A stretch of DNA of 64,000 bases from Bacteroidia bacterium. Its GTDB lineage: Bacteria > Bacteroidota > Bacteroidia > NS11-12g > UBA955. The translations under genes and the position numbers were made by a program. The notes below the pieces were generated by a model that had not been told where the DNA came from, ran no database searches, and was given only the letters and a program-made list of their open reading frames with translations. Shown in pieces: positions 10,495 through 15,644 of this stretch; position 1 is the first letter of the stretch, and the number at the start of each line of letters is the position of its first letter. Location: NCBI GenBank assembly GCA_044224315.1, contig JBGAKR010000001.1, positions 1,298,733 to 1,362,732 on the forward strand. Reading direction: 5' to 3'.

Positions 10495-10986
10495 CTAATT
10501 CAAAATCAATACCTTCTCGAATGCCGATATTGTTTTGCCAGTGGCTTTCAGAATATAGGTTCCGGGTGGCAATGGGCTGATTTCTATTCGAAAATCAAAG
10601 ATTCCGGGTTTAATGTCAAGGGATTTTTCATAAACCAGTTGTCCGCCCATGTTGTAAATTTCCAATTGCACATTTTGGCTTAAGGTGGTGAAAAGCCTGC
10701 CAGAGAAACTGCCGGTATTGGGGTTTGGGTATACCGATATCCCGGATTTGGAAAGCTTGCTACTGTCTGCCGGGGTTATGGCATTCGTAGTTGCCGTTAC
10801 CCTGGTATAAGCCTGTGAAATTCTGTTCCCGTCCGCATCGTATTTGTATTGGATGGACATGGAATCTGCATACATCACTTCAACCAGTCGGTTTGCGTTG
10901 TCGTATTTGTAAATTACATTTTGTCCATGCAATTGTAGTTTAAACAAGACCAGTAGTAAAATGAAAAATATAGATTTTTTATTCAT
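10495..10986 (-). CDS. small secreted protein: signal peptide + two YD/RHS repeats + T9SS type-A C-terminal sorting domain
   Basis: 163 aa. MNKKSIFFILLLVLFKLQLHG (signal), YKYDNANRLVEVMY and YKYDADGNRISQAY (YD repeats), C-terminal SVYPNPNTGSF...LEIYNMGGQLV...GTYILKA (CTD). Overlaps the RHS stop by 4 nt. Confidence 0.55.
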   Translation of the reverse strand: MNKKSIFFILLLVLFKLQLHGQNVIYKYDNANRLVEVMYADSMSIQYKYDADGNRISQAYTRVTATTNAITPADSSKLSKSGISVYPNPNTGSFSGRLFTTLSQNVQLEIYNMGGQLVYEKSLDIKPGIFDFRIEISPLPPGTYILKATGKTISAFEKVLILN

Positions 10987-13900: not shown

Positions 13901-15644
13901 AAAAATGTTCGTTGTTATTTATTATTTTTTCAATGCTTAAAACTGTAAATGCAACGGGGTCTATATTTCTAAATATAAACTTCATTCTGCCACGCGTAAT
14001 GGTAACTTTCGCGGGGTGCCCTAAGTTGTTTAAGGAGTCGATAGATAGCCTGTCGATTAATCCTTTTGTCTCATATTTATTTTGTGTTAATGAATATGTG
14101 TGGGTGCTACCATCTGGCCAGTAAATAATCATACGCTTCGCTGTACCAGAAATGTTGCCAACTATTTTAATAAAATAATGATTGGCATGGGTCCATCCGC
14201 CGCCCAATGGTTGTAACTTATTTCTCAACGTAGTATTCTCTTGTGGAATATCATAGTGCAGAATGGGCAATTCAAGCATATTTGAATGATAAGAATGCGA
14301 AAAAACCAAGGGTAATCCGCCCCCTTGGATGGAAAATCCATTATCGCTGTATTCATGAAAAACGCCATTTTCATATCCCCCTTTGTTTTCACCGTTGGAA
14401 CTGATGGTATTCGGAGTATAAAAATCTTCTGCTGATATTCCTGCAGGTAACAAATTCCGCTTAATTATTCTCGATATAATAACATAAGCGTTTTCATAGC
14501 TGAAATATGCATCATTGCCAAAGTTTGCTTTACCTGATGCGCATGGAGTTGTTATGGTATTGTCTAGCAGTCCGTTTAAATATGCCCTGGTAAGCCAGGG
14601 TACATTCTTATTATTTTTGGCAACATCACAAAACGAATTGCTGCTGGCCGTGGAATTCTTATCATATACTACCATATCTGCACCCATATTCACAGCCTCA
14701 AGTATTGCTCTTATTCCTGTGCTTCGGTTCATAGTGCCTGCATTAACTACATAATGTTCACGATCATAGGGTGAAACACCATCCGTACCATACCCAGTTA
14801 ATTTATCTCTGTATTCCAGAAATAGCATCATCTTGAGGTATCGCCTCTCATCCTGTGAATATTCTGACAGGTCTGAAAATACATCGGGGAAATAATCCAG
14901 GTAGGCAAGGTCACCAGGGTTAAATAGCACTTTACCCATGAGCTTTGCCAATTCCAATTTTGAGATAGGTGAATTAAGGGTTGCAATATTCTGGCTTTTG
15001 TCGATAATGCCGTACTTACAAAGTAATTCCATAGCAGTATCCACGTAACCTGCAGGGCGGTTGTTACCTGACCAGCTTATACAGCTGCTTGATGGGACGG
15101 TAAGAACACTGACATCGTCAATTCTTATTGTTGTTGCAAGGGAGCTATTGGTGTAACCAGAAAATTTCAATCTTAGCGTTTTACTGGTTGGAACCCCGGT
15201 AATGGAATAAATTTTTCTTTGATAATATTTAGAATAATCGGTATTGGAGATTTTGGGGATTGTGGCAATTACAGAGCCATTGCTTGGATCGATTAATGTA
15301 ATATCACAGTAATCATTCTTTAAAGTGGTCAGAGAATCAGCCGTACTTATTTTAAACCAAAAGCTCAGAATTAAATCAGGCGAATTACTTGGGATATTGA
15401 TATCCTGCCACAGCTCTCCCGATAAATTGTTACTAGGCTGTCCGTTATAATCAGCCAGGTAAGCATAACCTGGTGAACTGTTATAATTGGAATATTTTGT
15501 ATTGAATTGGAAATTGTTGCTTCGGCTCCAATTGGTTGAACCGTAATATGCCCCAGTAAAATTGCCATCTAAGATCAACTCAGACTGACAATATGAATAA
15601 AATGGGCAAACTAAAGAAATACAGATTACAATGTATTTAAACAT
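10983..15644 (-). CDS. RHS/YD-repeat protein with C-terminal polymorphic toxin domain
   Basis: 1553 aa with an N-terminal signal peptide and many YD repeats (YDAENRLVEE, YDNYGYIKS, YDQWGNVIY, YDENDNVIS...). The RHS core motif YYMKARYYQPSTGRFLAEDPV is followed by about 130 aa of unique C-terminal sequence (NPIDKFLKTSG...LPISNQTSL) with no T9SS CTD. Confidence 0.85.
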   Translation of the reverse strand: MFKYIVICISLVCPFYSYCQSELILDGNFTGAYYGSTNWSRSNNFQFNTKYSNYNSSPGYAYLADYNGQPSNNLSGELWQDINIPSNSPDLILSFWFKISTADSLTTLKNDYCDITLIDPSNGSVIATIPKISNTDYSKYYQRKIYSITGVPTSKTLRLKFSGYTNSSLATTIRIDDVSVLTVPSSSCISWSGNNRPAGYVDTAMELLCKYGIIDKSQNIATLNSPISKLELAKLMGKVLFNPGDLAYLDYFPDVFSDLSEYSQDERRYLKMMLFLEYRDKLTGYGTDGVSPYDREHYVVNAGTMNRSTGIRAILEAVNMGADMVVYDKNSTASSNSFCDVAKNNKNVPWLTRAYLNGLLDNTITTPCASGKANFGNDAYFSYENAYVIISRIIKRNLLPAGISAEDFYTPNTISSNGENKGGYENGVFHEYSDNGFSIQGGGLPLVFSHSYHSNMLELPILHYDIPQENTTLRNKLQPLGGGWTHANHYFIKIVGNISGTAKRMIIYWPDGSTHTYSLTQNKYETKGLIDRLSIDSLNNLGHPAKVTITRGRMKFIFRNIDPVAFTVLSIEKIINNNEHFLMFEYTKGSSPWAGWEPMLLKKVTDSYSKRFLSYNYEYGTNLLSSVVDPAGRIISFKVDTFQLNLVYSIDAKNQKTEYAYDEHYTTTIFPVHLLATITRPNGNTINNGYYSRKLKQSYSGNYSVNIEYKPNYTLQWTSQQSKVSVTQNLETITTNYNIDKVGNAVSNISKNAAIINKYDAENRLVEESDQILKIKKIYRYDNYGYIKSVVLLDSLFNDSVKYEYIYNQYGDLLLEYDYNCTETWRRETEYTYDQWGNVIYIVKNPNTGGEVKTEYSYWSDNHTLAYIITPNKVLTEFKYNSNGNIIRTITRNARTFSPKYADQPKQYFSYDTLSRLILVTDENDVVSSIAYDENDNVISFAKDISGLNLTTKYAYDKNDNLVSITSPKGHKTTLLYNFPTDDLIGESDGINKKSWKYYQDGSLDSFISKSGNQFKYTYFNEKDYPGTKHTGLLATDGHKYYTYRDNKNLWWINSDKGKRFIYYTTGPDRDKFNRHEWSATDGFFTTPSDNIQHYTDQGGRTTRIAYPQMQGGTGWLMDYTYNYQNGLIENIWNPNQSFKKYATYSYRKDGQPIQEELGNGVIVNYHYDTLGRPDSMWAINKSGTLLYSLGASLNRKGNHTRENLNIIYKGNAKNAFPKLTNGSQKTYAYENRNRIQTGNGKSYTSDGAGNITASGTTAYEWDEYERLVKIRTGADSTIYEYDPMGFRRRKNNVYYAVDHVTGNVLAEGTKNGTEISGYVWGNGLVARIDPKTDSVFYYLFDFRGSVIGITDEKGDLIKYYKYDPWGTVIEEGGSINWTNPYTYVGRHGVQQDAPDLYYMKARYYQPSTGRFLAEDPVWNTNLFVYADNDPINRIDANGQKPNPIDKFLKTSGINNNNWFRLGKGWDPISKTMKYRFAWGSHPVHFNKVPEYLKGINQSLRNSKVYGARAAGHLFFEEIPALLPVRFPMPPLILIQSNDGLYPLLPISNQTSL

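Follow-up and report, generated by a model that had tools for sequence, protein, structure and literature searches.

A conserved YD-module protein with a type IX sorting domain as a very probable partner of RHS polymorphic toxins

Within a 64-kb stretch of a contig from a Bacteroidia bacterium (JBGAKR010000001.1; the whole stretch of 64,000 nucleotides is called the window here), a gene for an RHS polymorphic toxin is followed on the same, minus, strand by a small gene for a protein of 163 amino acids, which combines an apparent signal peptide, YD repeats and a sorting domain for the secretion system of type IX (T9SS). The two genes overlap by four nucleotides, and no cognate immunity gene lies directly downstream of the RHS gene in the window. 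What, then, is the small gene for? A sequence-only reading of the locus had offered two answers: that it was once the C-terminal end of an ancestral RHS protein exported by the T9SS, displaced and left behind when a toxin cassette was replaced, or that it encodes a secreted decoy or immunity-like factor. From the domains of the two proteins and the order of the corresponding genes in relatives, we conclude instead that the small gene is very probably a selected functional partner of the RHS gene, and we find the window copy to be one member of a recurrent cassette.

The RHS protein and its 163-residue neighbour

The RHS gene (10983..15644; this and all further features of the locus lie on the minus strand) encodes a protein of 1553 amino acids, which includes YYMKARYYQPSTGRFLAEDPV. 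Comparison with Pfam and NCBIfam models identified RHS/YD repeats (RHS_repeat PF05593, 6e-17; TIGR01643, 2.8e-14) and, near the C-terminus, an RHS-associated core at residues 1363-1440 (TIGR03696, 57.1 bits against a cutoff of 32.5, 2e-15), in agreement with the sequence-only reading. Judged by eye from the translation, the protein starts with a Sec signal peptide of the signal peptidase I type, MFKYIVICISLVCPFYSYC (15585..15644), and a glutamine follows the cleavage site, a layout that an alignment showed to be common to all RHS members of the family. In an AlphaFold 2 model, residues ~21-185 (15090..15584) form a β-sandwich of the carbohydrate-binding-module (CBM) type, with a predicted local distance difference test score (pLDDT) of ~80, and its Foldseek matches in the PDB were CBM4/16/61 and phage tailspike modules (E values of 1e-8 to 1e-6, template modelling score on the target up to 0.77). 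A helical repeat region at residues ~190-400 (14445..15077) comes next, with three helix pairs in the modelled secondary structure. Its likeness to SLH domains is by eye alone and is unsupported here, as Pfam gave no match to this region even at E ≤ 10; real SLH matches are present in the more distant RHS homologues P0024-P0029. Taken together, the modelled CBM-like N-terminus and the helical repeats suggest glycan binding, on the surface of either the target or the producer.

The YD-repeat shell region covers residues ~440-1362 (11559..14327), as seen from RHS_repeat and YD_repeat matches, from TEN_YD-shell matches on homologues and from conservation across the family. It leads into the RHS-associated core (11325..11558), which ends in ...YADNDPINRIDANGQ; in the C-terminal alignment of the family, this end carries DANGQ in place of DPxGL, and is thus a DPxG-type end with alanine for proline. 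The RHS protein itself has no T9SS C-terminal domain (CTD), since PF18962 (Por_Secre_tail), PF13585 and TIGR04183 all failed to match it, which confirms what the sequence-only reading had said on this point. Its N-terminus likewise has no Pfam or NCBIfam match, to the TANFOR domain or otherwise, and the protein has a Sec signal peptide and no PAAR match, and so does not qualify as an Rhs effector of the secretion system of type VI (T6SS).

The product of the small gene (10495..10986) combines a YD module, joined through a linker to a T9SS type A CTD, with a putative signal peptide. The latter, MNKKSIFFILLLVLFKLQLHG, was read by eye and is followed by a glutamine, which fits the Bacteroidota habit of placing this residue after the cleavage site. 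The YD module of the mature N-terminus, QNVIYKYDNANRLVEVMYADSMSIQYKYDADGNRIS (residues 22-58; 10813..10923), overlaps a match to RHS_repeat/YD_repeat_2x at residues 28-60, and the sorting domain at residues 85-163 (10498..10734) is recognized above curated thresholds by both Por_Secre_tail PF18962 (residues 85-161, 44.9 bits, cutoff 27, 1.4e-11) and TIGR04183 (46.5 bits, cutoff 23, 2.6e-12). The two YD repeats and type A CTD that had been described for this 163-residue protein are therefore borne out, as is the four-nucleotide overlap: in the sequence ...gtttATGAat... the RHS stop codon and the start codon of the small gene share ATGA (10983..10986).

Further observations concern the relation between the two genes. 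A strong terminator-like hairpin with an 11-bp stem and a run of T (16172-16198, minus strand) ends the unit upstream of the RHS gene, so that RHS and small gene form a unit of their own, and no terminator-like site lies between them. The small protein shares generic YD similarity alone with its own RHS neighbour, with a best identity of 26%, and no DNA repeat linking the two genes was found. A word-indexed homologue search with the 163-residue sequence returned only the sequence itself, and a scan of viral contigs with an alignment of the partner returned just internal repeats of proteobacterial RHS proteins.

A conserved order of genes in relatives

Relatives were therefore sought through the RHS protein. 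A protein search yielded 13 full-length relatives of 1534-2048 amino acids, at 31-47% identity, and the contigs of nine of these were examined. A first scan of genome contigs with the whole RHS protein found no relatives in a collection that excludes the genome of the window itself; a scan of species-representative genomes with an alignment specific to the N-terminus of the family added eight loci (L013-L020). Below, the 11 family loci are the window, the loci among L001-L012, and L014.

The order of genes was the same at all 11: behind the RHS gene stands at most one variable open reading frame (ORF), and next comes the gene of a partner in which a signal peptide precedes a YD module. All RHS proteins of the family start with a signal peptide and lack a CTD, and Por_Secre_tail was found at the C-terminus of the partner in eight of the nine contigs examined, in the window and in L014. 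This last locus, from a Chitinophagales metagenome-assembled genome (MAG), repeats the arrangement in full, with an RHS gene, an ORF of 185 amino acids and a YD+CTD protein of 157; L013 was uninformative, its contig stopping just past the RHS gene. The partners share a module of ~35 residues, x[IV]xYxYDxxxRLxxxxYPxQxxxxYxYDxDGNR, which directly follows the signal peptide and glutamine and keeps the same register at the 11 loci. Past this module they vary by locus. The versions of 157-163 amino acids (window, L001, L004 and L014) have a linker alone, and the middle parts of the others are adhesin-type or of other kinds (BACON, PKD, SprB, discoidin-like or unassigned), with LamG, CARDB and immunoglobulin modules added in the distant partners described below. 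At L006 (12501-14588), the YD-module protein of 289 amino acids ends in two DxxxDxxIDxxD segments, which look dockerin-like by eye and have no Pfam match.

Averaged over the 11 loci, identity was 49% for the YD module, 44% for the RHS shell and 25% for the CTD. The genes on either side of the cassette differ from locus to locus and are typically those of mobile elements, namely integrases, ArdC, TraG-type coupling proteins and relaxase. The junctions between RHS and partner genes overlap or abut, consistent with co-expression, and the recurrence of the gene pair across independent loci shows that the pairing is not due to chance.

The pattern extends to more distant relatives. At five of seven distant loci (L015, L016, L017, L019 and L020, with RHS proteins at 24-31% identity), a secreted partner with a YD module is present. 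These include a PKD+CTD protein of 2126 amino acids (L015), an immunoglobulin-domain protein of 552 amino acids from a MAG labelled 'bacterium' (L019) and, in a Deltaproteobacteria MAG, a protein of 719 amino acids with thrombospondin-3 repeats (L020). For a quantitative comparison, a hidden Markov model (HMM) of the YD module was built from close-family modules alone, with the distant partners held out. With this model the held-out partners reached 22-41 bits, in every case at residues ~20-60. For 198 internal repeats of 18 RHS proteins, the median score was 1.35 bits and the highest 30.6. The C-terminal signal tracks lineage: most Bacteroidota partners have a T9SS CTD, and the Deltaproteobacteria partner (14253-16412 of its contig, with dozens of TSP3-like repeats) has another tail of a sorting type, GGGGGGC...hydrophobic...RFKKK, whose MYXO-CTERM/PEP-CTERM-type look was judged by eye and has no model match.

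Proposed export or anchoring in trans

In RHS proteins the C-terminal toxin is cut off and stays inside the shell; a T9SS CTD, in turn, has to be an accessible C-terminal domain. Because its C-terminus is a cleaved, encapsulated toxin, an RHS protein would be unable to bear a T9SS CTD of its own, and this clash between a buried toxin end and an accessible sorting domain in one polypeptide leads us to propose that the CTD is supplied in trans. For the specific claim that the partner binds the RHS cocoon and provides its export or anchor signal in this way, we judge the case to be evenly balanced. Binding and export in trans are what we infer here from gene content, domains, synteny and the conservation of the module.

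On this proposal, the locus would be a polymorphic-toxin cassette with three slots, of a kind typical for a family found on Bacteroidota mobile elements. The first slot would hold a Sec-exported RHS protein, in which CBM-type N-terminus, YD shell and RHS core precede an exchangeable toxin that lies packed inside the shell; the second, an exchangeable immunity gene, this being the slot that is empty in the window; and the third, the conserved partner, with its mature N-terminus of two YD repeats and its T9SS type A sorting domain. In the periplasm, the partner would dock on the RHS cocoon through the YD module, for instance by a β-sheet extension like that of TcB/TcC. Its CTD would then carry the complex through the T9SS, tether it to the cell surface, or both. 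Once at the surface, the RHS protein could act as a toxin, either contact-dependent or released, and its CBM-like domain would attach to a glycan on the target. The minimal partners of 157-163 amino acids, the lineage-dependent C-terminal signal and the overlapping junctions fit such an adaptor, in which the end facing the RHS protein is constant and the end facing the envelope is variable. A wider version of the idea, that N-terminal YD tags are a general piggy-back device by which a sorting signal at the other end exports or anchors RHS toxins in trans, we put forward as tentative.

Several points weigh against export in trans. We know of no experimentally proven precedent for hitch-hiking through the T9SS, and a cocoon of ~1000 amino acids would have to pass the translocon, if it can do so at all. 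At L006, the CTD is missing from the YD protein and found on the gene after it, which may reflect a two-step adaptor chain. Among the distant loci, the L016 partner (154 amino acids, with a GCX_COOH domain) has no recognizable CTD, none was detected on the 887-residue LamG/CARDB partner of Emticicia (L017), and the Lacihabitans locus (L018) has no YD partner. On plasmid pAUEb of Aureispira anguillae (L026), the RHS gene has an SprB+CTD neighbour, whose N-terminus was not recognized by the module HMM. Finally, the loci share ancestry, and locus counts overstate their independence.

It is also conceivable, if unlikely, that the partner is a surface anchor or adhesin and nothing else. It would then be exported alone by the T9SS and capture RHS protein that leaves the cell in vesicles, by lysis or through an unknown porin, either holding it on the surface or binding the target through the variable middle domains. 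The middle parts are indeed adhesin-type modules, partners without a CTD exist, and cargo with a type A CTD is typically attached to the surface. Adhesion cannot be the core function, however, when the minimal partners of the window, L001, L004 and L014 consist of YD module, linker and CTD alone, and the cassette encodes no alternative route of export.

More improbable is a neighbourhood that is simply inherited, in which a gene for a YD-containing T9SS cargo has stayed beside the RHS gene on mobile elements without any functional coupling. The close loci do all derive from a common cassette and lie in integrase, ArdC, TraG or relaxase contexts. Yet the flanks, the slot gene, the tip, the middle domains of the partner and even its C-terminal signal have all been replaced. 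What remains is the RHS body and the YD module alone, even where RHS identity is as low as 24-27% and even in another phylum.

The proposed export in trans has elements in common with several known systems. In the TcB-TcC pair of Tc toxins, two polypeptides joined by a YD-repeat β-sheet form one shell around a C-terminal toxin. In the window, by contrast, the RHS protein has a full-length shell to which the partner would add two YD repeats in a putative complex, and the locus has no TcA, SpvB or TcdB domain. The Bacillus subtilis protein WapA and further RHS/YD toxins that depend on Sec combine surface display with an exchangeable tip and a downstream immunity gene. The window RHS protein resembles them in its signal peptide and exchangeable tip, surface display being a feature of WapA; it differs in that WapA has its anchor in cis, in the form of wall-binding repeats, whereas here a second protein carries the candidate anchor or export signal and no immunity gene is present. 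Rhs effectors of the T6SS (PAAR/VgrG, EagR) also couple an RHS cocoon to a secretion machine through a small accessory protein encoded nearby, but the window has no PAAR, VgrG-binding or prePAAR region and no T6SS genes, and its RHS protein has a Sec signal instead.

Closer in lineage are the rhs genes of Apibacter, most of which adjoin genes with type A sorting domains, so that an involvement of the T9SS was suggested (Steele & Moran 2021, PMC8125069). Those are likewise Bacteroidota RHS genes without PAAR beside type A CTD genes; the paper reports adjacency only, with no N-terminal YD module, no order of RHS, immunity and partner genes and no in-trans logic (PMC8125069), and the Apibacter proteins have SpvB/TcdB N-termini in place of the CBM-like N-terminus of the window family. 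Around TANFOR toxins, which also are polymorphic toxins with a Sec signal and without a CTD, genes for CTD (Por_Secre_tail), SprB and PKD proteins are enriched, and export by the T9SS was hypothesized (Jana, Salomon & Bosis 2020, PMC7073777). The window differs in that its RHS protein has no TANFOR domain, the carrier is an RHS cocoon, and the CTD neighbour stands at a fixed position and bears a specific YD tag. By defining domains, the window locus is therefore not a TANFOR toxin, a T6SS Rhs effector or a Tc toxin. A literature search of incomplete coverage found no description of the YD tag, the fixed order of slots or a CTD in trans, and a search for hitch-hiker cargo of the T9SS returned nothing relevant. 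Adjacency had already been noticed in one genus; the YD-tagged partner as the organizing feature appears to be undescribed.

Toxin tips, immunity and the surroundings of the cassette

Turning to the toxin, the tip that follows the RHS core has 113 amino acids, somewhat fewer than the ~130 first estimated. Identity within the RHS family falls from ~0.6 to 0.17 past residue 1450, as is typical of a hypervariable C-terminal domain. The tip has a conserved toxin-type module at its residues 8-76, NNNNWFRLGKGW..YRFAWGSHPVHFNKVP..LKGINQSLR..GH (11097..11303), and then a hydrophobic, proline-rich extension over the last ~31 residues (10986..11078, pLDDT <50), which the canonical members lack in the alignment; comparable C-terminal extensions occur in P0016 and in the Emticicia RHS protein of L017. 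A phmmer search of 1.84 billion representatives matched 12 proteins and places the tip in a recurrent family of C-terminal domains. Eight of the 12 carry the canonical module; P0042, P0040 and P0043, with repetitive matches in multiple stretches, were set apart, and P0042 looks like a low-complexity artefact. In the eight, NWWRLGxGWNP...RLAWGAHxxH..VPxxL..xNxWLR..GGHxHFPxW stands at the extreme C-terminus, and in several the module is preceded by an RHS-type core and a hydrophobic stretch rich in glycine, the position of the toxin in polymorphic toxins. By sequence, the tip belongs to an unnamed family of putative toxin domains. The tips borne on RHS proteins (window, P0016/L001 and Emticicia L017) are a variant that ends in GGHL and continues into the hydrophobic extension. 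A word-indexed homologue search with the tip returned nothing, because the 90% cluster that contains the RHS protein has a fragment of 44 amino acids as its representative; that the 1553-residue protein and its tip are hidden from such a search is an artefact of the database. In a separate case, the RHS protein of L004 (6001-11277; P0018, found on 17 contigs) has a tip that by eye resembles a PD-(D/E)XK nuclease (…RIADIAVF…VEVK…).

A metagenome scan with the tip alignment gave five loci with canonical tips, and at all five the next ORF, of 152-181 amino acids, belongs to one homologous family (L021 6201-6668; L022 721-1266; L023 3374-3877; L024 1408-1866; L025 6201-6707) with the motif FxIxFWLxENRxSF..ED.EI.DEYLK. 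From position and homology, we assign this as the putative cognate immunity family of the canonical tips, apparently one without a name so far; neither it nor the canonical toxin domain has a match in Pfam or the PDB. An HMM of the family found no member in any frame of the window, L001 or L017 (best E 0.55-1.6), and its best hit in the window (E 1.1) leaves the 163-residue protein without homology to the family. Among the three variant tips borne on RHS proteins, only that of L001 is followed by an ORF (187 amino acids). This ORF was ruled out as a canonical immunity member (hhalign probability 0.1%) and has no homologue in the window.

The window itself has no same-strand ORF of at least 25 amino acids between or behind RHS and partner, trivial embedded ones aside, so that the four nucleotides of overlap stand for an empty immunity slot, where relatives have a variable ORF of 101-284 amino acids. 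The claim that no immunity gene is visible is upheld by this empty slot and by the lack of window homologues of the L001 slot gene and the canonical immunity family. The sequence-only reading had named two outcomes as fatal to its idea, a conventional immunity ORF and a small ORF that is absent or pseudogenized in all relatives, and we saw neither. The slot is also empty in L004/L005, L015, L016, L017, L019 and L026. An empty slot is therefore common in this class of RHS loci, and less anomalous than a single locus would imply.

A separate, locus-specific ORF between RHS and partner is found at nine of the 11 family loci, for example a CdiI-like gene in L011, a leucine-rich repeat protein in L003 and an uncalled ORF of 101 amino acids in L006, and both tips and slot genes are mutually unrelated across loci. 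This variable region of tip and slot gene is bracketed by the RHS core and the 5' end of the partner gene, which fits cassette exchange. The sequence-only reading was thus right to invoke replacement of a cassette, in that a tip is swapped together with its immunity gene between two conserved flanks, and wrong to see the small gene as a leftover of it. It was similarly right that immunity is missing in the window.

A role of the 163-residue protein as decoy or immunity factor for the tip has very little probability. In its favour, the small gene comes next after the toxin gene in the window and L004, and no further immunity gene can be seen. An immunity protein co-varies with its toxin, whereas the small protein is conserved, with a module ~49% identical, across tips that differ completely and slot genes that change, and so does not behave as an immunity factor would. 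Separate slot genes, including the CdiI-like one, exist in the family, the canonical tips have a putative immunity family of their own that is of cytoplasmic type, and a protein exported to the surface could not protect a cytoplasmic target. The displaced C-terminus is hardly tenable: it draws on the YD repeats of the small gene and on a real exchange of tips and immunity genes, but the gene has an apparent signal peptide of its own and a module in fixed register at 16 loci, retains no remnant of an RHS core, has at best 26% identity to its own RHS protein and no linking DNA repeat, and is kept intact beside unrelated tips, its module identity of 49% indicating selection.

The surroundings of the cassette in the window are of other kinds. 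The gene after the partner encodes a GmrSD-type restriction enzyme (8576..10423, minus strand) and belongs to a row of defence-type genes directly downstream (1222-10423, all on the minus strand), with an N6/N4 DNA methylase (1222-3090), a second GmrSD-family type IV restriction enzyme (3100-5094), a PD-(D/E)XK nuclease (5081-5917) as well as a helicase of the UvrD type that has a nuclease tail (5917-8544). In the toxin-antitoxin-like unit upstream (16337-18071, minus strand), an MqsR-like toxin (17721-18071) is accompanied by an antitoxin that fuses MqsA-HTH + SocA/Panacea (16701-17717) and by an ORF of 126 amino acids (16337-16717), unassigned and with a TTG start. This ORF was rejected as an immunity candidate, since it lies in the MqsR/MqsA-Panacea unit and the terminator-like hairpin separates it from the RHS gene. 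Three more ORFs with C-terminal T9SS type A sorting domains (20935-24876, 29192-30823 and 43348-49773, minus strand) indicate a host rich in T9SS cargo, as had been remarked, and lend indirect support to T9SS machinery in its genome. A G+C peak of 0.56 (surroundings ~0.35-0.45) lies at 18500-19000, inside an unassigned ORF of 249 amino acids (18491-19240).

Whether the T9SS exports polymorphic toxins that have no CTD is a question raised in 2020-2021 (PMC7073777, PMC8125069), to which this family of loci offers a concrete, minimal and testable answer in the form of a protein of 157-163 amino acids made up of YD tag, linker and CTD. If the tag binds the cocoon, it would explain how Bacteroidota RHS toxins with a buried C-terminus arrive at the surface and why cassettes of tip plus immunity gene lie between two conserved flanks, and it would offer a portable handle by which RHS cocoons could be loaded onto a secretion system. 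Were the tag to act as a general piggy-back device, the T9SS would have its first example of hitch-hiker cargo and would be shown to deliver polymorphic toxins. In addition, the analysis defines an unnamed domain, putatively a toxin, together with a candidate immunity family of its own. The immunity-less state of the window is real but frequent, and the frequency of such cassettes in this class bears on what the targets of these RHS toxins may be.

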